DNA of 32,000 nucleotides, from NCBI GenBank assembly GCA_016205145.1, contig JACQJH010000001.1:510001-542000 (forward strand). Reading direction: 5' to 3'. The position numbers and the translations under genes are program-made. Below, piece by piece: positions 1 through 24,403 of the stretch (its first letter is position 1; each line of letters opens with the position of its first letter). The DNA is from Candidatus Iainarchaeum sp. Lineage in GTDB: Archaea > Iainarchaeota > Iainarchaeia > Iainarchaeales > JACQJH01. The notes beneath the pieces were generated by a model. The model had not been told where the DNA came from. It made no database searches and saw only the letters and a program-made list of their open reading frames with translations.

Positions 1-597
1 ATGCTTACTGGCTTTTGGGTGCAATCCAAGACCAGAAGGAAGGCAAGCATGTCTTCGACCAGATTTAAAGGCGGGCAAAGCCTACATGCTTTTTTCGCAA
101 ACCATTTGCCTTCAACCCGCAACGCCCTGCCCCGCAAACGGTTAAGGCATTGCCAGCAAGGGAGTTTAGTAGAAAAGCCCCGCATTTGCCTTCAAGCCAA
201 GCAGGAGCGCGGGCGCAAAAGCCTTGCAGTTGAAATTAAGCCATGCCAACAAAAGATTAACCATGCTGGCTGCGCGTCCATAAAATCATTTGCGAAAATC
301 GCAAGCCAAAAGGGCAGGAGTTGTGAGGCCATTTCTCATTAAGGCCTTAACACTTTTGAAAAGCGTTGACGAATACAAGCCCTTTCCCGAAAACCCTTTC
401 GACTATTCCAGCCAGCCCCTTGTGCAGAAAAGCCCCACAGAAGGCTTCAAGGCTTTCCACTTCACCGGCGAAAAATGCCTAAAGAATAGTTCAACATATG
501 CAGCAAAAACATTGCGCTTTTGAAAAGTGTTTGCCTTTCAATCAAAAGCCTTCAACGCTTCTCTAAAGGGTCAATTGTTTTTCATTCATTTCTCGTT

Positions 598-1446
598 TTA
601 TTGGAGTTGCACTTCAATTGGAATTGCTATTTCTGGAGTGCCACAAATAATAGAATATGGCGTCACTGAGTTGTCAACTTGTCCAACACAAATGGTAACT
701 GAGCCTGCTTCATTCTGGCTTGTAGAGCCATAACTCGAATAAGCTATTTTTAGTACAGTGCTTTGTTTTGGTCTTAAATTATATAACTCATCTTCGAACC
801 CTATAATACCAACGTTATGCGATGTGCTATTAATTGACGTTCTAATGCCCTGCACCTCAAAATCAGAATCGTTTGTTATTGTAAGTGTTTTTTCATCCTT
901 ATAGACCGTTTCTTTGATACTTGGTTCGTTTGGATAAACCGGCATGCTTTTCGGAGTCAAATCAATTTTTTTCGGGGCGACTTCCAGTTTTATTTCTGGC
1001 GGTGGAATTTGGAATGTTTTGCAGTCGGATGAATTAGACACGCAATAACGGATAGGGGAAATTTCTAGAGACTCTGATTGCAACAGTATGCCAATGAGAG
1101 AAGCTGAACAAACACTTTGTGGTTCACAAGAAATAGTGGTTGGCAAAGAGTCCACCGCGCTAATGCTATCATAATATATATTTAGCTCAATAGCTTTACC
1201 TTCATTTGACTTATTTTCAAATTTTACCTCTGCTGTTCCAATGGGTCTTATATCTTGTTTTGCGCCTATCGCCGCCATATCAATTGGATAGATAGATTTC
1301 CAGTTTGCCCCTTTAAATTCAATCGAGTCTATTTTAGGTTGGGCTTGTTGGATACAGCCGGTTAAAAAAATTCCTGTCAAAAAGACTGCAATCAAGATTA
1401 GCAAAATATTCCGGCCAGGTCCTAATTTTTCCCAATTATTGTTCAT
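598..1446 (-). CDS. Putative lipoprotein / secreted Cys-containing envelope protein, no family recognised
   Basis: 282-aa ORF. The N-terminal hydrophobic stretch ILLILIAVFLTGIFLTGC ends in a lipobox-like LTGC. The remainder is Ser/Thr/Asn-rich, looks beta-rich and has six more Cys. It lies in the low-GC island. Confidence 0.6.
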   Translation of the reverse strand: MNNNWEKLGPGRNILLILIAVFLTGIFLTGCIQQAQPKIDSIEFKGANWKSIYPIDMAAIGAKQDIRPIGTAEVKFENKSNEGKAIELNIYYDSISAVDSLPTTISCEPQSVCSASLIGILLQSESLEISPIRYCVSNSSDCKTFQIPPPEIKLEVAPKKIDLTPKSMPVYPNEPSIKETVYKDEKTLTITNDSDFEVQGIRTSINSTSHNVGIIGFEDELYNLRPKQSTVLKIAYSSYGSTSQNEAGSVTICVGQVDNSVTPYSIICGTPEIAIPIEVQLQ

Positions 1447-1473
1447 TATACCACACTCTTATTGTCAAAACCC

Positions 1474-1500
1474 AGTATAAATATGTTACGTTACTGTTAC
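1474..1500 (+). promoter_or_regulatory. TATA-like box (agtataaata) followed by three tandem GTTAC units; candidate promoter/operator of the wHTH gene
   Basis: gttacgttactgttac at 1485-1500 sits directly after a TATAAATA box, in the 89-nt divergent intergenic region between ORFs 598-1446(-) and 1536-1784(+). Confidence 0.3.
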
Positions 1501-1535
1501 TCTGGCTTTAATTTAGGGGTTCAGTCACTAATTCT

Positions 1536-1784
1536 ATGTCTGAGTATGACCTGTTGGCGCAGATTAGGCGCGGCAAGATTAAACCCCAAATCCTTAAGCT
1601 TTTACAAGAACCAAAAACGCCAACAGACTTGAAAAAGATTATCGGAGCCCATAGAGAAACAATCAGCAGAGCAATACTCGAAATGGAAGAAAAAGGCCTA
1701 GTAACTTGTCTGAACCCAAAACAACCAAACTTTAGGTACTATCAAATTACAAACAAAGGAAAAAACCTATTGAAGAAAGTATGA
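1536..1784 (+). CDS. Small winged helix-turn-helix DNA-binding protein (ArsR/MarR-like)
   Basis: 82 aa. The segment KTPTDLKKIIGAHRETISRAILEMEEKGLV followed by NFRYYQITNKG fits an HTH plus beta-wing layout. ATG start. Confidence 0.65.
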   Translation: MSEYDLLAQIRRGKIKPQILKLLQEPKTPTDLKKIIGAHRETISRAILEMEEKGLVTCLNPKQPNFRYYQITNKGKNLLKKV

Positions 1785-1802
1785 GAATTTCTTATTTGCA
1801 CC

Positions 1803-2756
1803 CTAGTTAAGTAATTTTTCGCATTCTGCACTTGATTCACGCCATATACAAAATGTTACTTCTTTTTCTAGGGGGTATGACTGTTCTGTGCAATTTTCAC
1901 AATAGAGGGATACATTTAATTTGTGTAAGCCCACGGGGACGTTTTCTGGGTTACACTTTTGTTTATGTGCCCCGTCTGGCCTCTCGCTGCAGGCATTGAA
2001 TGAAATTTTCATATCTCTTTTTGTGCTTTCTAATCCGCTTAGGTTTTGGATAGTACTTTCTAGTATTTGTGGCCAGAAAATGCTATTTACGCCATTGCTG
2101 TCCTTCTCATTTGCAAGCATAGTAATTATTCCGGTATCTGTAATACCAAGATTTTGCAGTTTAAGTTTTAACCAACCGCCCGAGATTTGTTTATAATTCC
2201 CATTTTCATCAGTTTCAAATTTTGCTATTTCGCTGGCACTAAAAAATAAATCTGTTTTTTCGTCACCAAAACTTGTTTGCAAGTATGGAATGATATGTGG
2301 CGTTCTATCTAAAGTTGTGGCTAAAAGCCGTGTTTGATTCGACATCTCTTCAACTGTTTTCTTGTTTTCATTTAAAAAAGAGGCATTGAAGTATGCGCCC
2401 ACGAGAAGCGCGGCTAGAGTTATTACTGCAACTACTTTTGAAATATTTAAAGAAAAATTCGCAATCTTTGAATTTTCTTCTGCTTTGTCAGCTAGTTTTT
2501 TTGCCGATTCTGCAATTTGTTTTGTTTCTTCCACCATACTTTTTGTTGCAGCTATATTTCTATCTTGTCTTTCTAGTGAGTGCCAAAATTTTCTTTTATT
2601 ATCTTCGGCTTTGAAAGGCTCAGCCCTGCTATCTGTGAGTTTGTAGGCAAAACGAACAACTAATTCGACTTCTTCGTCTGTGCAATCGGACATGTTTCTT
2701 TTGCCAGTCACTACACTGTTAGCAATCTCAATAGCTCTGTTTTCGTCACTGAGCAT
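1803..2756 (-). CDS. Bitopic membrane protein: charged helical cytoplasmic N-domain, one TM, ectodomain with a C-terminal six-Cys module
   Basis: ORF 1803-2765. The first ATG is at 2756 (MLSDEN...). The TM segment is VVAVITLAALLVGAYF. The KQIAESAKKLADKAEENSK stretch looks like coiled coil. The C-terminus has C at NAC, KC, YC, NC, FC and EC. It starts 14 nt downstream of the preceding ORF. Confidence 0.6.
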   Translation of the reverse strand: MLSDENRAIEIANSVVTGKRNMSDCTDEEVELVVRFAYKLTDSRAEPFKAEDNKRKFWHSLERQDRNIAATKSMVEETKQIAESAKKLADKAEENSKIANFSLNISKVVAVITLAALLVGAYFNASFLNENKKTVEEMSNQTRLLATTLDRTPHIIPYLQTSFGDEKTDLFFSASEIAKFETDENGNYKQISGGWLKLKLQNLGITDTGIITMLANEKDSNGVNSIFWPQILESTIQNLSGLESTKRDMKISFNACSERPDGAHKQKCNPENVPVGLHKLNVSLYCENCTEQSYPLEKEVTFCIWRESSAECEKLLN

Positions 2757-2770
2757 AAAAATCAATTAAA

Positions 2771-3331
2771 CTATGTTAAATCAAGTAAGTCCGTTTTGTT
2801 AGCAAGGTTGAGTAGGCCAGTGGAAAAAACCCAAGACGCAATCGCTAATGTGCCAAGTCCTGCCACTGCCAATATAACTTTGGCGATAAAAATTACTTGT
2901 GCTACAATAACCTGATTACTAAACAGCAACATTAATTTTACTAGAGGACTTTGATTAAACTCAGTTGTCGATAAATAAATTGTAGCATTAAAAAAAATTA
3001 ATCCGAAAATAAAAAGAATGGTGGAAGTAAAAAAGTTTTTTCCAGATTCTGTCGCAATTGTCTTTTGTTTTTTTTCATTCACTGCTCTGCTAAATTCAAA
3101 ACTTAGGAGGCTAAATGTTGTTGAAACAACAATTGCTGCTTCCCATAGCACGAAATATTCGGCAAATTCGTTCAATCTATTTATGTCTGGAATTAATCTA
3201 AGGATAAACGCAAATATTGCCAACGTAACTAAGCCGGCAATCATAACTGCCGACAATTTAATGGCAATTTTTATAATTTTGTTTATTTTTTTCTTAATAT
3301 TGGACTTGTCGAACTTTTTCAATAAAAACAC
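2771..3331 (-). CDS. Polytopic (about 4 TM) membrane protein, no family recognised
   Basis: 186-aa ORF with four long hydrophobic segments and a Lys-rich N-terminus. The start is GTG at 3331; an alternative ATG lies at 3244. Confidence 0.55.
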   Translation of the reverse strand: MFLLKKFDKSNIKKKINKIIKIAIKLSAVMIAGLVTLAIFAFILRLIPDINRLNEFAEYFVLWEAAIVVSTTFSLLSFEFSRAVNEKKQKTIATESGKNFFTSTILFIFGLIFFNATIYLSTTEFNQSPLVKLMLLFSNQVIVAQVIFIAKVILAVAGLGTLAIASWVFSTGLLNLANKTDLLDLT

Positions 3332-3377
3332 CTATTAATTTGGTTGAAATTTACGATTCAAATACGAAAATCAACAA

Positions 3378-4115
3378 TTATACTTTCAAAATGTATTGTT
3401 TATCCTTCTTTGTCCAGCGGCCTTTTAGGATTATTGGGTGCGCTCCTTTTTCGACATATTTGCCAGAATAATAGTTTAAATCTGCGCTTTCTCCAACGTC
3501 TAAAATTGCTACAATCAAGTCAGGATAAAAGTTTGTATATTCTTCTATTTGTGCCATTAGATTTCGCAAAACATTGTTGTTTTTTGCTATTTTGACTTCA
3601 ATGCCAATTCTTCTGTTTATGACCATGTCTATTTTTTCGCCATGCTCTAATGGCACTTCAGGTTCAACCTGCCAATGCGGTTTGCTTGCTTTTAACAATG
3701 TTTCCAAAACAAATGACAATTCCCGTTCATTTTGAAAAATTCTATCAGACTCAAATTTTTTTAATATCCCAAGTATTTCTAACACTTCTGAATCAATTGG
3801 TGTTTTTCTTTTGTAAACCCACAAATTAGCCCATTTATCAATACGCTCCATATCGGCCATAAGTCCTTTGAAAAAAGACACTGTTGGTATTGATAATAGG
3901 AATAATCCTAAAAGCAAGCTCAATAGGCTACTAACAAAATCTGTTTTGAACCCACCCCAACCAAAAATTCCAGCTAAACCCAAAAATACCGATATGACAC
4001 CAATAGCTAGTAAAACAACAAAAAGTTCTGTTTTGGTTATCTTTTTTTGTCGTTTTGAGGGTGTGTTATTCCATGTATTTTTAGGCCTGCGCGCAAATGA
4101 TTTGAACCTGCCCAT
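3378..4115 (-). CDS. Membrane-tethered PD-(D/E)xK (RecB/Cas4-like) nuclease-fold protein
   Basis: 245 aa. It has a basic N-terminus and two TM helices. The soluble domain then carries the ordered motifs NERELSFVLE, GEKIDMVI (D163), IGIEVK (E173-x-K175) and QIEEY (Q189-x3-Y193). A BRE/TATA-like box at 4138-4152 ends 22 nt upstream of the ATG. Confidence 0.6.
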   Translation of the reverse strand: MGRFKSFARRPKNTWNNTPSKRQKKITKTELFVVLLAIGVISVFLGLAGIFGWGGFKTDFVSSLLSLLLGLFLLSIPTVSFFKGLMADMERIDKWANLWVYKRKTPIDSEVLEILGILKKFESDRIFQNERELSFVLETLLKASKPHWQVEPEVPLEHGEKIDMVINRRIGIEVKIAKNNNVLRNLMAQIEEYTNFYPDLIVAILDVGESADLNYYSGKYVEKGAHPIILKGRWTKKDKQYILKV

Positions 4116-4137
4116 CTGCCAAAATTATGTCCTTCTA

Positions 4138-4152
4138 GTTAAAAAGTTTTTC
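4138..4152 (-). promoter_or_regulatory. BRE/TATA-like promoter box (minus strand reads GAAAAACTTTTTAAC)
   Basis: It ends 22 nt upstream of the ATG at 4115. The identical 15-mer occurs at 14641-14655, upstream of the GT2 gene. Confidence 0.45.
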
Positions 4153-4221
4153 GGCATTATTGGCTGTGGCTTTAAAGTTGTAGGTTGCATTTGAGCATTT
4201 AACAATTCAGTACAAGCAGAG

Positions 4222-4365
4222 TTAAAGTTCTCGCAATTCATAGTTTCCGGTCTTGTTTAAAACCCATTCTAGCTTTTGTCCGGCTTGCCAGCCTTTGGCC
4301 TTGACAAGCGGTGGCGCGATTGTGAGAACAAACGCCCCGCTTTGGTGTTGTTGGAGTTTTGGCAT
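4222..4365 (-). CDS. Small AbrB/SpoVT-like (swapped-hairpin) DNA-binding protein; not in the supplied ORF track because it is under 60 aa
   Basis: Hand translation gives MPKLQQHQSGAFVLTIAPPLVKAKGWQAGQKLEWVLNKTGNYELREL (47 aa, stop TAA at 4222-4224). The TIAPPLVKAKGWQAGQKLEW stretch resembles the AbrB/MazE motif (T-I-P-x-x-h-x-x-x-h-G-h-x-x-G-D/Q-x-h). A TATA-like aatataaag lies about 20 nt upstream of the ATG on the minus strand. Confidence 0.4.
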   Translation of the reverse strand: MPKLQQHQSGAFVLTIAPPLVKAKGWQAGQKLEWVLNKTGNYELREL

Positions 4366-4545
4366 TTCGGTTCACCAAAAAAACTTTATATTAGTATTGA
4401 CATTATATAAGATATAAAAGCAGGGGTTATAACGTAGAATTGTAATCAATCAGAACGCATTTTTTTATTTCGGCTACCCCGCATCATAATCTGATTCGTC
4501 ACTTGTGCATGGTCGTATTTTCTCTGGTTAATTTTTTTGGCGGCC

Positions 4546-4596: not shown

Positions 4597-4995
4597 ATGG
4601 TTAACCAATCCAGGCTGGATTATGTCCGGGCGATTTTCATTTTGTCCGGCAGGCTGGGCGAGGTTCGCGGCAAGGGCCTGTCGGAATACCTTGGCGTGAG
4701 CAAGAACACTGTTTCGACAATGCTGAAGCGCTTGAGGGCGCAGAAGCTTGTTTTGTATGAAGAGTATGGCGCGGTTTCATTGACAAAGAAGGGCGAGCGG
4801 CTGGCGAAAGACCTTACCGCAAGGCACAGGCTCATAGAGCTTTTTCTTACCAGGGTTCTCAAGCGCAATCCCAAGACAGTGCATGGCGAGGCCGACCTTT
4901 TGGAGCACGCTTTTTCCGAGCAGAGTTTGAAGTCGATGCGAAAGCTTTTGGGCAATCCCAAGTTTGACCCTCACGGGAAAACAATTTTCGTTTGA
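4597..4995 (+). CDS. mntR: DtxR/MntR-family metal-dependent transcriptional repressor (two-domain form, no SH3-like C-domain)
   Basis: 132 aa. It shows a DtxR-type N-terminal wHTH (LSEYLGVSKNTVSTMLKRLRAQKLV), a dimerisation/metal helix (ARHRLIELFL) and HGEADLLEH...DPHG metal-ligand-like residues. It lies directly upstream of an NRAMP gene. Confidence 0.85.
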   Translation: MVNQSRLDYVRAIFILSGRLGEVRGKGLSEYLGVSKNTVSTMLKRLRAQKLVLYEEYGAVSLTKKGERLAKDLTARHRLIELFLTRVLKRNPKTVHGEADLLEHAFSEQSLKSMRKLLGNPKFDPHGKTIFV

Positions 4996-5007
4996 GGCTG
5001 ATTTTGG

Positions 5008-6303
5008 ATGGTTTTACAACGCCTAAACAGGTTTACAGAGGCCTTGGGCAGGGTTTTGTCGAAGTTTCGCGTGTTCTCGGATCCGAAATTTTGGGCGTTT
5101 TTCGGCACCGGCCTGATTGTCAGCGTCGCGTACATGGATCCGGGCAATTGGGGAACCTCGATTGCGGCCGGCTCGGTTTACAATTACAGCCTGCTTTGGG
5201 CTATCTGGCTTGCAAGTGGAATGGCAATGCTTTTCCAGTATTTGTCCGGAAAAATGGGGATTGCAGGCTATTCTCTTGCCGAAGTCATTCATCTGCGCTG
5301 GAAAAACAGGTCGCTTGTGCTTGTTTATTGGCTGCTTGCAGAAGCCGCCATTCTTGCAACCGATCTTGCTGAGTTTTTGGGAATCGTCGTTGCACTAAAC
5401 CTTCTGTTCGGCGTGCCCTTGCTTTTAGGCGCGTTCATAGCAATGCTTGACGTCCTGTTGCTTTTGTTCCTTGCCTCCAAGAGCTTTCGCGCAATCGAAT
5501 ATGCTTTCATTCTTTTCGTTTCCACCATAGGCGTGGGCTATGTTTATGAAATTTTCATCACAAAACCGGACTTGCCCTCCATTTTGGTGCATTCTGTTGT
5601 CCCCGTCCTCAGCCCGGCAATGGTTTTGTTTGTCGTCGGCATTGTCGGCGCGACTGTGATGCCGCACGCGCTTTTCGTGCATTCCTGGCTCATCAAGAAC
5701 AAGATGAAGGAAAACAACGGCAAAATTGACGTAAAGACCGCCTTGTCCTACCACAAAGCCGACACAATTCTTTCCCTGCTTGTCGCCGGCCTAATCAATG
5801 CTGCAATCCTGATAATGGCTGCGGCGGCGTTTTACGGCCTGGCTTCAGGCATAGCAACGATTGATGCGGCATACCGCACGCTTACACCGCTTTTTGGTCC
5901 GCTCGCCTCAACTGTTTTTGCGGTCGCCTTGCTTTCGGCCGGCATCTCATCCTCGATAACCGGCACGCTGGCGGGGCAGAGCATAATGGAGGGCCTCACT
6001 GATTTCAAGCTCAGTCCCACTGTCAGGCGCCTGATAACAAGGGTAATAAACCTCGTTCCGTTGCTCATTGCCATTCTGCTGAACATCGAGCCGCTCCAGA
6101 TCCTGGTTTACAGCCAGGTCGTGTTAAGCATGCTCATTCCCCTTCCCCTGATTCCGCTCATATACTACACCGCGGACAAAAAGCTTATGGGCGGCCTTGT
6201 GAACAAAAAAGCAACGACTGTTGCGGCGGCAATCTTCGCTTTGCTCATTGTCGCCTTGAACGCTTATCTGCTCTACCAGACGCTTGCGCCGGGATTGGTT
6301 TAA
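5008..6303 (+). CDS. mntH: NRAMP-family divalent metal (Mn2+/Fe2+) transporter
   Basis: 431 aa and polytopic. It has the signature DPGN motif (AYMDPGNWGTSIAAGS) and a MPHALFVHS motif. Confidence 0.9.
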   Translation: MVLQRLNRFTEALGRVLSKFRVFSDPKFWAFFGTGLIVSVAYMDPGNWGTSIAAGSVYNYSLLWAIWLASGMAMLFQYLSGKMGIAGYSLAEVIHLRWKNRSLVLVYWLLAEAAILATDLAEFLGIVVALNLLFGVPLLLGAFIAMLDVLLLLFLASKSFRAIEYAFILFVSTIGVGYVYEIFITKPDLPSILVHSVVPVLSPAMVLFVVGIVGATVMPHALFVHSWLIKNKMKENNGKIDVKTALSYHKADTILSLLVAGLINAAILIMAAAAFYGLASGIATIDAAYRTLTPLFGPLASTVFAVALLSAGISSSITGTLAGQSIMEGLTDFKLSPTVRRLITRVINLVPLLIAILLNIEPLQILVYSQVVLSMLIPLPLIPLIYYTADKKLMGGLVNKKATTVAAAIFALLIVALNAYLLYQTLAPGLV

Positions 6304-6362
6304 AGGCATTGCTTGCCTGCCAAGCCAACTTTTAATTAGTGCTTTTGCATTACATTGTTTTA

Positions 6363-7145
6363 ATGCCTGACGCTGATTTTGTCGTTGACCTTGCCGGCCT
6401 GAGGCGGCTTTTCCGCGCGCGCGGCTTCAGGTTCAAAGATGGTTTTTGGGTCAACGATGGGACTGGCGCAAGGGCCGGTTTCGATGGAAAATCAAGGGCT
6501 TTGAAAAGCTTTGTTTTTTTTGACCCGGATGGCAGAAAATTTTTTGGCAGGAGCGCATTGGAACTTCTTGGCGTGCACCACCATGACATTATTCACACGT
6601 TAAAGTCCCATGAGAATGTACAAACCGGGCGCGGGGAGCTTTTGGTTGAAAATCATTCCGGAGGATTTCTTCTCGTTCCGGTTGATGGCTTGTGGGGCAT
6701 ACGGCGGAAATCGCGTTACAGCGCAGATCTGGGGTTTGATGTTGTGGCCAAAGCCACTGCGCATAACGCCAATCCTGTTTATTTTGCCGGCAACACGGGG
6801 TTGCTTGCATCTGGCGAATATGAATTTGAAAAAATATTTTTTTCGCCAGCCGGAACCGATTCCGGGCCGCGGCTTGAAATCGTTTTGTCCTATCGGCATC
6901 AAAGGTCTTTTGATCCTGAAAGGGCGCCCATGCAGAAAATCCCTTTGCGTTTTATTTTTGACGGAAGACTCTGGAAACCGGGTGGCAGGGAAACAGCGGA
7001 TTTCCTGCAAACGCACAAGGCTGTCCTCAAGCGCATTAACCGGAATTTTTCTGTCGACCGGTCGCCCGGCTGGAGAATCGCTTTCAGGGCGCCGGAAAGG
7101 CACGGCATCGCAAAACTGTTCGGGCGGGTTTCAAGAAGGCGCTGA
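6363..7145 (+). CDS. Hypothetical protein, no family recognised
   Basis: The ORF is open from 6339. The ATG at 6363 lies 25 nt after a TATA-like ACTTTTAATT (6328-6337). The product is Arg/Gly/Phe-rich with a basic C-terminus (RVSRRR). Overlapping shadow ORFs exist, so coding status is not certain. Confidence 0.45.
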   Translation: MPDADFVVDLAGLRRLFRARGFRFKDGFWVNDGTGARAGFDGKSRALKSFVFFDPDGRKFFGRSALELLGVHHHDIIHTLKSHENVQTGRGELLVENHSGGFLLVPVDGLWGIRRKSRYSADLGFDVVAKATAHNANPVYFAGNTGLLASGEYEFEKIFFSPAGTDSGPRLEIVLSYRHQRSFDPERAPMQKIPLRFIFDGRLWKPGGRETADFLQTHKAVLKRINRNFSVDRSPGWRIAFRAPERHGIAKLFGRVSRRR

Positions 7146-7160
7146 ATTATTTTAGTGTTA

Positions 7161-7568
7161 TTAGACGGTTATTTCGGTTTCAATTTTGCCTTTGCCTTTC
7201 CGTTTTTCCCATTCTTCGATTGCCTTTTGCAGCACGGTTTTCGCGAGCGTCGCGCATTTTATGCGCGTCTGTATGATGCCGCCGAGCATTTCAAAGACGT
7301 CCTTGTCTGAAATCTTTTTCACTTGGGCAAGGCTTTTTCCTTTCACGTGCTCGGTCAGCAGGGAAGCGGATGCCATGCTTATGGCGCAGCCTTTTCCAAA
7401 AAACTTTATGTCCGCGATTTTCCCGTTTTCGATTCTGAGGGTTATCTGCACTCTGTCACCGCAGCTTGGATTGCCGCCGCCGGCCCTGACGTCATAGTCT
7501 TTGAGTTCGCCGTGGTTGACGGGGTTCCTGTAAAGGTCGAGGATGATTTCGGAGTAAAGTTCGCTCAT
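7161..7568 (-). CDS. sufU: SufU/IscU-type Fe-S cluster scaffold/sulfur acceptor
   Basis: 135 aa with the three conserved Cys contexts NPSCGD, GKGCAIS and IKCATL. It overlaps the sufS stop by 4 nt. Confidence 0.85.
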   Translation of the reverse strand: MSELYSEIILDLYRNPVNHGELKDYDVRAGGGNPSCGDRVQITLRIENGKIADIKFFGKGCAISMASASLLTEHVKGKSLAQVKKISDKDVFEMLGGIIQTRIKCATLAKTVLQKAIEEWEKRKGKGKIETEITV

Positions 7569-8815
7569 TTTTCACGCCTTTCGCTTATTTTGAAAACGCG
7601 CTTGACTTCCCTGATTCCGTCAACGAGCGCCTGCACGTCATCCAAATCATTGTAAACGTAAAAGCTCGCCCTGGCAGTGCCGACAATTCCCATTTCATCC
7701 ATCAGCGGCTGGGCGCAGTGGTTGCCGCTCCTTATCGCAATGCCCTTTTCGTCCAGGACAGTTGAAACGTCGTGCGGGTGCACGCCTTTCACGTTGAAGG
7801 AAATTATTCCAAGCTTGTGCCTTGGTTCCGGGCCGTAGATTTCAACGCATGGAATGCGTTCGATTTCTGATGTCGCCTTTTCAAGCAGTTTTTTTTCGTG
7901 CCTTTCAATGCCGTCAAAGCCGATTTTTTCAAGGTAATCTATCGCGGCCGCCAAGCCTATTCCGCCGGAAATGTTCGGCGTTCCGGCTTCGAACTTCCAT
8001 GGCAATGAATTCCACGTGCTTTTTTCGAATGAAACCGTTTTTATCATGTCCCCGCCCGTAAGGAACGGGGGCATGCTTTCAAGCAATTCCTCTTTTCCGG
8101 AAAGCACGCCTATGCCGGTCGGCCCGAGCATTTTGTGGCCGGAAAACGCGCAGAAGTCCGCTCCGGTTTTTTTCACGTCGAGTTTCCTGTGCGGCACAAG
8201 CTGTGCGGCATCGAGAATCGTGGTTGCACCCGCATCCTTTCCCATGCGTGAAAGCCTTTTCACGTCATTGAGGGTTCCAAGCGCGTTTGACGCGCCGGTA
8301 AAAGAAAATATTTTCGGCTTGTGCGAAAGCTTTTCCTCCAGGTCTTTTTCGTCGAGCCTGCCCTCTCGCGTGACGTCAACCCATTCCAGCTTTACGCCTT
8401 TTTCCTTCAATTGCTGCCATGGCACTATGTTGGAATGGTGCTCAAGCTTTGTGATGAGGACGCGGTCGCCTTTTTTGAGCAGCATTTTGGAAAGAGAGTG
8501 GGCCAAAACGTTCAATGATTCGGTTGTGTTGCGCGTGAAGACTATTTCCTTCCAGCTGTTGGCGCCGATGAATTTCGCGGTCTTTTCGTGCGCCTTCTCG
8601 TACAGTTCGGAGCTTTCAAGGCTCAGTTCATATGCTCCGCGATGCACGTTCGCATTCGTGTTCCTGTAATATGCGCTTATCGCGTCGATGACCTGCAAGG
8701 GTTTCTGCGTCGTCGCGGTGTTGTCAAGATAGACAAAGCGGTGGCCGTTGATTTTCCTCTGAAGAATGGGAAAATCTTTCCTGATTTTTTTGACGTCGAG
8801 TGCCATATGATTCAT
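7565..8815 (-). CDS. sufS: Cysteine desulfurase, SufS (class V aminotransferase)
   Basis: 416 aa. It has the PLP-lysine context SGHKMLGPTGIGVL and the active-site RSGNHCAQPL. Confidence 0.92.
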   Translation of the reverse strand: MNHMALDVKKIRKDFPILQRKINGHRFVYLDNTATTQKPLQVIDAISAYYRNTNANVHRGAYELSLESSELYEKAHEKTAKFIGANSWKEIVFTRNTTESLNVLAHSLSKMLLKKGDRVLITKLEHHSNIVPWQQLKEKGVKLEWVDVTREGRLDEKDLEEKLSHKPKIFSFTGASNALGTLNDVKRLSRMGKDAGATTILDAAQLVPHRKLDVKKTGADFCAFSGHKMLGPTGIGVLSGKEELLESMPPFLTGGDMIKTVSFEKSTWNSLPWKFEAGTPNISGGIGLAAAIDYLEKIGFDGIERHEKKLLEKATSEIERIPCVEIYGPEPRHKLGIISFNVKGVHPHDVSTVLDEKGIAIRSGNHCAQPLMDEMGIVGTARASFYVYNDLDDVQALVDGIREVKRVFKISERREK

Positions 8816-22884: not shown

Positions 22885-22957
22885 AACCCAATCAAGCCGG
22901 TTTGGCAAGACAACAACCTTTTAAACAATCCAAACCCAAATTACTATTTGAACATTT

Positions 22958-23030
22958 GGGCCTGTAGCCTAGCGGATAAGGCGCCTGCCTTCTAAGCAGG
23001 AGATCGGGGGTCCGAATCCTCCCAGGCCCG
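22958..23030 (+). tRNA. tRNA-Arg (anticodon TCT), no intron, CCA not encoded
   Basis: I folded it by hand. The acceptor stem is GGGCCTG/CAGGCCC. The D stem is GCCT/AGGC. The anticodon stem is CCTGC/GCAGG with loop CTTCTAA. The variable region is AGATC. The T stem is GGGGG/CCTCC with loop TCCGAAT. The discriminator is G. A TATA-like CCTTTTAAAC (22917-22926) lies 31 nt upstream. Confidence 0.9.
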
Positions 23031-23277
23031 CTTTCGCGCGGGCGTGACGAAACTGACGTGCCTTGCGCGGCAAGGCACCGCGTATGCCGATTAAAGCTTC
23101 AGGGGGTTGCAAGGGGCGAATGCCCCTGCGCGCAAATCCTCCAAGGCCCGAGCCGTCGCGTCCGGCTGGTGCGAACCAAGGCGTTCTGCTATCGCAGAAC
23201 GCCGAGTATGCAAAAATGCGCTTTCGTGCGGATGGTGCGAAACTGGGGCATCCGCGCTTCGCGTGACAGCCAGTATT
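23028..23277. repeat. Three tandem degenerate copies (about 23028-23087, 23155-23211, 23218-23277) of a ~60-nt unit: GCTTTCG - GTGnCGAAAC - 9-10 bp hairpin - GnGTATGC
   Basis: Hand alignment. The hairpins are gtgccttgc-gcg-gcaaggcac (23058-23078) and ggcgttctgc-tatc-gcagaacgcc (23180-23203), plus an imperfect one in copy 3. The stem sequences differ between copies but pairing is kept. Confidence 0.55.
23135..23150 (+). repeat. 16-nt direct copy of the tRNA-Arg 3' end (AATCCTCCaAGGCCCG versus AATCCTCCcAGGCCCG at 23015-23030)
   Basis: 15/16 identity read directly, lying exactly 120 nt downstream of the original. There is no matching 5' acceptor strand, so it is not a second tRNA. Confidence 0.6.
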
Positions 23278-23385
23278 CTTTTGCAATGCTTTCATGCGCA
23301 TGGCTGACTAATGCATTATTGTTAAACCGCAATACGCCGAGCAAACTAATTTTGTAAATAAACGGACCGTGCTCTGTCTCGCCGG

Positions 23386-23808
23386 TCAGCGTTTCAGTAT
23401 TATCCCAAAACGCCCAAGCCTTTCAACTATGTTTGCTTCCCTGGCCTGCATGTTTTCGTCATCGGCCGCAAATTGCCTTACTTGCCTCAACTCGTGGATT
23501 TCTTCCGTAAGTTTCATTATTTCGTCGGGACGAAGCAGTTGCAGGGCGCCAAGTGCCGCCATATTGAGTTGAAGTATTCTGGAATCGTTAATGGCCCGCC
23601 CAAGCCGGATAAGGGCGCCTCTTCTTCGTGCCAAATAGGTTTGTTCTTTTCCTGGACGCGTATTGGCTTCAGCATTCTTTGCCGCTTTTCCGCGCGTTTC
23701 GCTCTTGCGTCTTCTTACCCGCACTGCCCGTACAATACTTCTCTGTGTCCTTCTGGCCCGGTTTGGCTTTCTTGGTCTAAACATTTGATACACTTTGTTC
23801 TTTTTCAT
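23386..23808 (-). CDS. Hypothetical, very basic protein (Arg/Lys-rich N-terminal half, helical C-terminal half)
   Basis: 140-aa ORF. A TATA-like GTTAATAAA overlaps the first ATG, so the ATG at 23784 (MFRPRKPN...) may be the real, leaderless start. A competing 157-aa ORF lies on the plus strand, so coding status is uncertain. Confidence 0.4.
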   Translation of the reverse strand: MKKNKVYQMFRPRKPNRARRTQRSIVRAVRVRRRKSETRGKAAKNAEANTRPGKEQTYLARRRGALIRLGRAINDSRILQLNMAALGALQLLRPDEIMKLTEEIHELRQVRQFAADDENMQAREANIVERLGRFGIILKR

Positions 23809-23843
23809 TTATTAACTTTTGCGGATTCGCCCCGCGCCCTGCC

Positions 23844-23866
23844 TTTTTTTGCGGACCGCAAAAAAA
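23844..23866. promoter_or_regulatory. Perfect 23-nt palindrome TTTTTTTGCGG-A-CCGCAAAAAAA in the divergent region upstream of the ATP synthase operon
   Basis: Read directly. It lies about 70 nt upstream of a TATA-like CTTTTTTAAA (23933-23942). Confidence 0.4.
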
Positions 23867-24049
23867 CATTTGTTTTCCGTATTTTAAGTGTTTTCACGAA
23901 TGCGTTCGCGCGTTTTTTCCCTTGGCCGGGAACTTTTTTAAACTGATTGCGGTTTGAGTTCTTTTACGTTTTTTTTGTTGCGGCCTGGCTTTTCAGGCCT
24001 TATTATCATGTTTGGATTGTTGTTTTTGCAGGGTTGGGGGTTGTTTTTG

Positions 24050-24403
24050 ATGTCAGGGCATGATGTTGGCGAAGCATCCGATTTTGGTTCCTTGGACAGC
24101 ATAAGCGGGGCCGAGGAAACGGCCGACAGGATTGCCGTGGAAGCGCAGAAAAAGCGCGAGCGGCTGCTTGAAAAGGCCAGGCTTGACGCCGCAAGCCTTG
24201 TGGAAAATGAAAAGCGGAATGCGCTCGCCGGCAGGGAAAAGAAAATAGTTGAGCTGAAAAAAAGCCTTGAAAAGGAGAAGGCTGCGATGGAATCCGAAAC
24301 GGAAAAAAGGGTTTCCGAAATCTCGAAAAAAGCCAAGGCGCAGTCCGCAAAGGAAGTTTCGTTTCTGGCCGGCAAGTTTTTGGATGAGATAAAAAATGTT
24401 TAA
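24050..24403 (+). CDS. atpH: A-type ATP synthase subunit H
   Basis: Charged coiled-coil sequence (AVEAQKKRERLLEKARLDAASLVENEKRNA...) in first position of the operon. I chose the ATG at 24050, which is preceded by a GGGGG run. The ORF is open from a TTG at 23954, and an ATG at 24008 is also possible. Confidence 0.7.
   Translation: MSGHDVGEASDFGSLDSISGAEETADRIAVEAQKKRERLLEKARLDAASLVENEKRNALAGREKKIVELKKSLEKEKAAMESETEKRVSEISKKAKAQSAKEVSFLAGKFLDEIKNV

Follow-up and report, generated by a model that had tools for sequence, protein, structure and literature searches.

A predicted membrane-anchored PD-(D/E)xK nuclease-fold protein in the low-GC module of a probable tRNA-Leu-integrated element of a DPANN archaeon

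We analyzed 32,000 nucleotides of Candidatus Iainarchaeum sp. (contig JACQJH010000001.1 of 613 kb, positions 510,001 to 542,000 of the forward strand; hereafter the window), in which three minus-strand genes, here called A, B and C, lie close together between positions 1803 and 4115. Gene A was confirmed by homologue alignment and structure modelling to carry a real PD-(D/E)xK nuclease fold with a complete E...D...ExK...QxxxY active site. Its product is a membrane-anchored variant in an archaeal and viral PD-(D/E)xK family that is experimentally uncharacterised. We propose, with a probability of roughly 0.45, that A alone is a membrane-held endonuclease acting in mobile-element conflicts, in analogy to the bacterial nuclease SNIPE. 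NCBI lists A (HY394_02570) and C (HY394_02560) as hypothetical proteins of a Candidatus Diapherotrites (DPANN) metagenome-assembled genome. The features of A are given below in window coordinates; ORF stands for open reading frame.

3378-4115, minus strand: gene A, HY394_02570, 245 aa, predicted membrane-anchored PD-(D/E)xK nuclease (ORF list, 140 homologues, PHROG match, AlphaFold2 model)
3966-4022, minus strand: predicted transmembrane helix 1 of A, residues 32-50 (hydropathy; AlphaFold2 helix 28-51; basic N-terminus before the helix)
3870-3926, minus strand: predicted transmembrane helix 2 of A, residues 64-82 (hydropathy; AlphaFold2 model)
3396-3797, minus strand: nuclease domain of A, residues ~107-240 (homologue conservation, AlphaFold2, Pfam matches of relatives)
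3726-3728, minus strand: catalytic codon E130 (conservation, as for the next five)
3627-3629, minus strand: catalytic codon D163
3597-3599, minus strand: catalytic codon E173
3591-3593, minus strand: catalytic codon K175
3549-3551, minus strand: catalytic codon Q189
3537-3539, minus strand: catalytic codon Y193

Conservation was counted in an alignment of 132 homologous domains. D163 and E173 were present in all 132, and E130 and K175 in 131 each. Q189 was conserved in 122, Y193 in 126 and D206 in 104 of the 132. When AlphaFold2 was run with the family alignment, the predicted local distance difference test (pLDDT) score was 96-98 over residues 110-240; the domain modelled alone gave a pLDDT of 95.8 and a predicted template modelling score (pTM) of 0.88. 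The modelled core has the order alpha-beta-beta-beta-alpha-beta (helix 130-144, strands 150-155, 161-166 and 170-176, helix 180-193, strand 199-206). In this model, E130 opens helix 130-144, D163 lies in the second strand (161-166), E173 and K175 lie in the third (170-176), and Q189 and Y193 lie in helix 180-193.

The ORFs of A, B and C are long and lie in DNA of 33-38% GC. A is not a chance ORF, because such a length in such DNA is combined with 140 database relatives. Ten of the first 31 residues of A are K or R, two hydrophobic helices follow, and 163 residues, the C-terminal part, come after them. The positive-inside rule predicts an N-in/C-in hairpin, which would place the nuclease domain in the cytoplasm. 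A first-pass annotation, made from the letters and an ORF list, had described a basic N-terminus, two transmembrane helices and a membrane-tethered, cytoplasm-facing domain of PD-(D/E)xK nuclease fold. Hydropathy, conservation and AlphaFold2 agree with this description: the canonical core of the restriction-endonuclease-like fold was modelled with a pLDDT of 95.8, and the motif residues named at that time (acidic-helix E, hhhD, ExK and QxxxY) are precisely the conserved positions of the family, in 122-132 of 132 domains.

The domain was compared with known families by profile and structure searches. The best Pfam match of A was REase_DpnII-MboI (E=0.036, 14 bits against a curated cut-off of 27), and PHROGs returned phrog_28707, 'nuclease', over residues 109-231 (E=2.3e-13). 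NCBIfam and PADLOC gave zero matches, and a sequence search of the PDB gave noise only (rhodopsin transmembrane helices and a designed protein). Among 126 relatives compared with Pfam, 22 matched REase_DpnII-MboI (best 7e-6), eight REase_MTES_1575 and five PDDEXK_9; other matches were to PDDEXK_3, PDDEXK_4 and Tox-REase-9 (three members, E=1e-4). Foldseek was run twice, with the full-length model, in which the transmembrane helices diluted the result, and with the domain alone, which gave sharper restriction-enzyme matches. Nuclease matches with a probability of 0.93-0.99 were EcoT38I (best TM-score, 0.49), PspGI, CdiA-CT (TM-score 0.39-0.40), XPF and FANCM, and further nuclease-fold matches were YaeQ, BbvCI and T7 endonuclease I. 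Against the viral models of BFVD, PD-(D/E)XK proteins were matched at E values of 1e-5 to 1e-4. The domain is a distinct PD-(D/E)xK subfamily without a close solved relative.

Relatives of A were identified by an exhaustive HMMER scan of 1.84 billion representative proteins with residues ~107-240, which yielded 140. A word-indexed homologue search with A returned only A itself; its profile form, in which low-complexity candidates were dominant, returned 7 proteins. In genome scans, a 7-sequence alignment gave nothing, and 18 named genomes were retrieved with a second subfamily alignment. Named relatives belong to Thermococcaceae, Hydrothermarchaeota, Archaeoglobus, Geoglobus, Desulfurococcales and Thermodiscus, and those in DPANN archaea to Woesearchaeota and another Diapherotrites genome. 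A viral homologue is encoded by the spindle-shaped Thermococcus prieurii virus 1 (TPV1; AEY69074.1), annotated by its authors as 'putative nuclease RecB family'; it is 30% identical to A over residues 115-230 (tblastn, E=1e-10). The two closest relatives share 50% and 42% identity with A. The closer one is tied to Pfam DUF8371 (PF28130) by one weak precomputed match, and no paper in the literature mentions DUF8371. A 2014 'dark matter' survey lists virus- or plasmid-associated PD-(D/E)XK arCOGs, which cannot be linked to the A family.

The nuclease domain is C-terminal throughout the family and the N-terminal part varies. K/E-rich, coiled-coil-like N-termini are common, and SAP/Rho_N-like ones occur in a few members (SAP in three). 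Thirty-five of the 140 representatives (~25%) carry one or two transmembrane helices, in every case behind a basic N-terminus. Membrane anchoring thus recurs within the family and is not a one-off. Separately, we observed a motif, Y-x-x-[ND]-P-x-T-G-x-[KR], sometimes duplicated, at the N-terminus of both transmembrane and soluble relatives. Its carriers are P0011, P0026, P0012, L076 (5596-6426), L078 (5578-6393) and TPV1 AEY69074 (L004, 2169-2903), and it is absent or degenerate in A of the window.

The genes around A relatives were surveyed at ~75 loci: 45 from metagenomes, 18 from genomes, those of the virus and of the two closest relatives, and others. Clustering of the neighbour proteins revealed no partner conserved across unrelated loci, and the downstream genes were heterogeneous. 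Frequent neighbours were housekeeping genes, namely those for methionyl-tRNA synthetase, EPSP synthase, beta-CASP RNase, CBS protein, isochorismatase, uracil-DNA glycosylase and a phosphoenolpyruvate-utilising enzyme; AAA_14/DUF4143 ATPases and HerA were also found. The A family is a solitary gene spread across archaea. As a side observation, genes for AAA_14 + DUF4143 ATPases lie one to three genes from soluble relatives at four loci (L030, 3068-4333; L045, 7879-9162; L050, 4752-6050; and L051). The association could be real, or could reflect merely how common such ATPases are in archaeal variable regions.

Relatives with transmembrane helices stand alone between housekeeping genes. In other DPANN genomes they form low-GC single-gene islets: L005 (7729-8606), 28.8% GC against ~50%; L076 (5357-6426), 49% against 55%; and L078 (5578-6393), 38% against 55-60%. 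The islet with 28.8% GC lies in the other Diapherotrites genome, where its start is 118 nt past a tRNA-Asn gene. One Woesearchaeota relative starts 167 nt after a tRNA-Thr gene, and that of another Woesearchaeota genome is the one with 38% GC between flanks of 55-60%. No attachment (att) repeats were found beside the tRNA-adjacent relatives (L005, L076, L078 and L021). The transmembrane-form relatives look like single-gene insertions, and the patchy occurrence of the family points to horizontal transfer.

In the window, the A-B-C cluster is the distal low-GC cargo module of a ~9.97-kb element integrated in the 3' end of a tRNA-Leu gene. This assignment is probable rather than proven, because the att repeat is short and neither an empty site nor an excision junction was seen. 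The order of the element is tRNA-Leu/attL, tyrosine integrase, small ORFans, lipobox protein, winged helix-turn-helix (wHTH) regulator, C, B, A and attR. Its features in the window are as follows.

1-68, plus strand: 3' end of a 174-aa element ORFan, the remainder lying left of the window
~560-4250, no strand assigned: low-GC module, 33-38% GC, five genes (282-aa, wHTH, C, B, A)
598-1446, minus strand: 282-aa ORFan with signal anchor, lipobox-like LTGC and six further Cys (ORF list, hydropathy)
1536-1784, plus strand: wHTH regulator, 82 aa, convergent with C (Pfam HVO_A0261_N, 6e-7; MarR/TrmB-like; PADLOC matches to Csa3/CasR-type wHTH)
1803-2765, minus strand: gene C, 320 aa with the TTG start or 317 aa with the ATG at 2756 chosen by NCBI; ORFan
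2771-3331, minus strand: gene B, 186 aa, GTG start, four predicted transmembrane helices; ORFan
4138-4146, minus strand: TATA-like CTTTTTAAC, centred ~27 nt upstream of the A ATG (direct sequence reading), candidate archaeal promoter
4473-4483, plus strand: putative attR GCTACCCCGCA, 11 nt, matching the final 11 nt of the tRNA-Leu(GAG) gene exactly

The left flank was taken from Logan contigs of the same samples and reaches 5.6 kb past the left edge of the window; coordinate x of this flank (L010) corresponds to window coordinate 3112 - x. It contains the rest of the element (L010 3044-8668), with ~10 small ORFs, the integrase and the tRNA-Leu gene. The 373-aa tyrosine integrase scored 27.7 bits in Pfam (cut-off 27.1) and matched phrog_1 (E=1.2e-14). 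The tRNA-Leu(GAG) gene, ~5.5 kb left of the window, was identified with ARAGORN (Rfam, 49.5 bits) and ends 62 nt upstream of the integrase. The other genes on this side encode a 158-aa DNA-invertase-like protein (phrog_7701, 1e-6), a 78-aa ribbon-helix-helix protein, a 68-aa coiled-coil protein, and ORFans of 200, 174, 148, 87, 86 and 74 aa without a family match. On the right, GCTACCCCGCA occurs as the sole copy in the 32-kb window (0.03 expected by chance). It is found where the GC content shifts, between A and the host gene for an Fe-dependent repressor. GC is 44-49% in most of the remaining element and ~50% in the host part of the window. The locus adds a probable small tRNA-integrated element to the poorly known mobile elements of DPANN archaea.

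Inside the element, window positions 68-597 form a stretch of ~530 nt with no convincing ORF. It contains a 17-nt inverted repeat (349-365 and 515-531, 94% complementary) and three CATTTGCCTTCAA-like direct repeats (103-118, 183-198 and 543-558). These signals are weak; they would suit an origin or a regulatory region of the element. GCYTTCAA was considered as an iteron here and rejected as a strong signal, since the motif is common across the whole window.

A may instead serve the element itself. In a provirus or integrative plasmid, it could take part in replication, recombination or resolution, or in processing of the genome, anchored at the membrane site of replication or exit. B, C and the 282-aa lipoprotein would, on this view, be envelope or virion proteins of the element. 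The homologue in TPV1 adjoins viral regulators, another is on a contig that looks viral, with small co-directional ORFs, and a third has ParB_N and DnaJ genes beside it. Membrane-containing archaeal viruses carry membrane or secreted Cys-rich proteins, and the element encodes three proteins of this kind. However, no capsid, packaging ATPase or replication protein was recognisable in the element, and B, C, the 282-aa protein and the integrase had no relatives in IMG/VR, GenBank phages or PLSDB. Moreover, most family members are solitary among housekeeping genes, which a maintenance role leaves unexplained. We consider a role of this kind rather unlikely, and favour a part for A in mobile-element conflicts.

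In the proposal we favour, A would work singly, with no three-part sensor for which it is the effector. Anchored by its basic N-terminus and hairpin, the nuclease would stay on the cytoplasmic side of the membrane, apart from most of the chromosome, and could cut DNA that is entering or being handled at the membrane. Incoming viruses or plasmids would in this way be excluded, to the benefit of the resident element and the cell. In the simplest view, B, C and the 282-aa lipoprotein would be further surface or envelope cargo that the element carries and that is co-transcribed with A. We hold the structural and contextual parts of this proposal with high confidence; the exclusion mechanism, for which the location-based separation of self from non-self by SNIPE is the precedent, is put forward tentatively.

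Several points weigh against the proposal. No enrichment of A relatives in defence islands is visible, and many are located among housekeeping genes. PADLOC has no model for A. Foldseek found no solved structure at E<1e-3 (best TM-score 0.49); A can therefore be assigned to no solved subfamily, and nothing can be transferred from a close relative. For all family members, DNA as the substrate, the topology and any exclusion phenotype are predictions. The att repeat measures only 11 bp, seen with neither an empty site nor an excision junction, and the other genes of the element give no hint as to virus or plasmid. Finally, A, B and C are tightly spaced (46 nt and 5-14 nt) and could be functionally linked at this locus, a link that comparative data would miss because B and C are ORFans.

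A bolder form of the proposal, which we consider unlikely, would make A the archaeal PD-(D/E)xK counterpart of SNIPE, a single-gene, membrane-anchored nuclease that cuts viral or plasmid DNA crossing the membrane. It would travel as a small low-GC cassette beside DPANN tRNA genes and ride integrated elements, and B and C might be locally evolved adaptors that position A at the entry site. If the exclusion role that we favour holds, archaea would have evolved location-based discrimination of self and non-self at the membrane independently, with another nuclease fold; this membrane-location principle has so far been shown only for bacterial SNIPE. It would also provide the first function for a widespread, unstudied nuclease family of archaea and viruses.

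A toxin or addiction role is very unlikely. A would be harmless at the membrane, or through a partner such as B, and would damage the host chromosome upon loss of the element or release from the membrane. The top nuclease match among solved structures is the CdiA-CT toxin domain, three family members match Tox-REase-9, gene A is on a mobile element, and SNIPE is toxic without its transmembrane segment (PMC13190303). However, the similarity to toxin domains is weak (TM-score 0.39-0.40; Pfam E=1e-4), no small immunity-like partner is conserved next to family members, and solitary chromosomal copies are common.

We then consider B and C. Both are supported as genes only by ORF length, transmembrane pattern and operon-like spacing. 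B lies 46 nt downstream of A and has a basic N-terminus and four transmembrane helices by hydropathy. The gap between B and C is 5 or 14 nt, depending on the start codon of C. By hydropathy, C has a charged N-terminal part, one transmembrane helix (108-126) and a 194-aa outer C-terminal part; six Cys lie between residues 259 and 315. The TATA-like CTTTTTAAC may be a promoter for a leaderless or short-leader A-B-C transcript, and an AGGTG Shine-Dalgarno-like site precedes an alternative TTG start of B at 3322; from these two sites, co-transcription of the three genes is plausible. No match for B or the 282-aa protein was found in Pfam, NCBIfam, PADLOC or PHROGs, and C matched only itself in 5.8 billion proteins. 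GenBank phages, IMG/VR and the loci with an A relative contained no relative of B or C, and the 282-aa protein likewise had no viral relative. Within these searches, B and C are lineage-specific ORFan membrane proteins without a conserved link to A.

The first-pass annotation had proposed, as a working hypothesis, that A, B and C form an envelope-sensing module that activates A, for abortive infection or anti-mobile-element defence; in such a system, the C ectodomain and B would sense an envelope perturbation and switch on A. Its account of the parts holds: the three ORFs share the minus strand with gaps of 46 and 14 nt (the second being 5 or 14 nt by C start), B has about four transmembrane helices, C is bitopic with a charged N-terminal part, an ectodomain of ~190 aa and six Cys, and no PADLOC, Pfam or NCBIfam model claims any of the three. 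The shared strand, the single TATA-like site before A and the Shine-Dalgarno-like site before B would suit a joint system, as would the fact that all three products are membrane proteins. The system itself was not supported: lack of co-occurrence, which the first-pass annotation had named as a result that would overturn its idea, is what the surveyed loci showed. In tblastn searches of the ~75 loci, B, C and the 282-aa protein had no match, even beside the relatives of 50% and 42% identity, and the single match to any gene of the module was a generic wHTH protein, found once. In addition, C is alone in the protein databases, the transmembrane-form relatives stand by themselves and PADLOC detected nothing. 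Co-location with defence islands, which had been suggested as a check, was not seen either: the cluster is flanked by the integrase-bearing element on one side and by Fe-repressor, NRAMP and IscU genes on the other, and is probably the terminal module of a tRNA-integrated mobile element and not part of a defence island. A system present in one genome only is indistinguishable from chance adjacency of cargo genes, and we consider the three-gene reading highly improbable. The locus shows that a tidy three-gene ORFan 'operon' on a mobile element is not readable as a system without evidence of co-occurrence.

Lastly, DPANN archaea depend on hosts for nucleotides, and a membrane-anchored nuclease could process imported host DNA for uptake or scavenging by a DPANN episymbiont. 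This alternative, a form of which the first-pass annotation had already named, is the least credible. Neither the element nor its flanks contain DNA-translocation or pilus genes. Free-living Thermococci, Archaeoglobi and Desulfurococcales commonly carry members of the family, as does a virus, and gene A is accessory, low in GC and carried by the element.

To the right of attR, the host flank (4597-8815) contains a gene set for metal homeostasis and Fe-S clusters, in which ORF 7565-8815 reads like a cysteine desulfurase. The other genes are as follows.

4597-4995, strand not given: Fe-dependent repressor (Pfam scan)
5008-6303, strand not given: NRAMP (Pfam scan)
6339-7145, strand not given: 268-aa ORF, no Pfam match
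7161-7568, strand not given: IscU/NifU_N (Pfam scan)

Farther to the right, within ~22900-24400, the GC skew changes sign and the main gene orientation turns from minus to plus near 23-24 kb. A tRNA-Arg(TCT) gene (22958-23031) lies near this switch, which could be replication-related or a simple divergent gene block.

We compared A with the known systems that it resembles. The TPV1 protein AEY69074.1, with PHROG 28707, has the same nuclease domain and catalytic motif set, and both it and A are on mobile or viral DNA. However, the N-terminus of the TPV1 protein is soluble, with a DPLTG motif, SAP-like helices and an acidic coiled coil, and lacks the hairpin of two transmembrane helices. REase_DpnII-MboI (PF18742), REase_MTES_1575 (PF18741) and PDDEXK_9, the best profile matches, share the core fold and the placement of D and ExK with A, but the matches examined individually were below the curated cut-offs. 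Pfam, NCBIfam and PADLOC scans revealed no methyltransferase partner in the A-B-C cluster or the element.

The first-pass description of A as 'RecB/Cas4-like' stands for the order of the motifs, an acidic-helix E followed by hhhD, ExK and QxxxY, and for this order only. Cas4 and AddB bind a 4Fe-4S cluster with four cysteines, whereas A has none and therefore no Fe-S cluster of this type; Cas4 identity was rejected on this ground. No helicase or CRISPR context surrounds A. PDDEXK_1 and Cas4 profiles did not match A at an E limit of 1, nor its relatives at 0.01 among the matches listed for the 25 commonest families, and no RecB, AddB or Cas4 structure was in the top 50 Foldseek matches of A.

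Solitary Mrr-like type IV restriction nucleases combine an N-terminal DNA-binding module with a C-terminal PD-(D/E)xK domain. The A family resembles them as a stand-alone PD-(D/E)xK nuclease without a methyltransferase, with a variable N-terminal module and a patchy distribution. In contrast, the variant in the window has a membrane anchor in place of the DNA-binding module, and no match to the Mrr_cat profile was found.

SNIPE is a bacterial membrane-bound nuclease composed of a transmembrane part, DUF4041 and GIY-YIG, and its anti-phage activity has been shown experimentally (Nature 2026, PMC13190303). It requires DUF4041, a domain that binds DNA and tape measure protein, and its family has a conserved nuclease and a hypervariable N-terminal region, with transmembrane helices in only part of the members (PMC13190303). 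A is an archaeal PD-(D/E)xK protein, and neither DUF4041 nor GIY-YIG was found in it with Pfam. Because the nuclease folds differ, membership of A in SNIPE was rejected, and the relation is one of analogy, not homology. The features in common are an N-terminal membrane anchor, a nuclease predicted to be cytoplasmic, an N-terminus that varies across the family and bears transmembrane helices in part of it, and encoding by a single gene.

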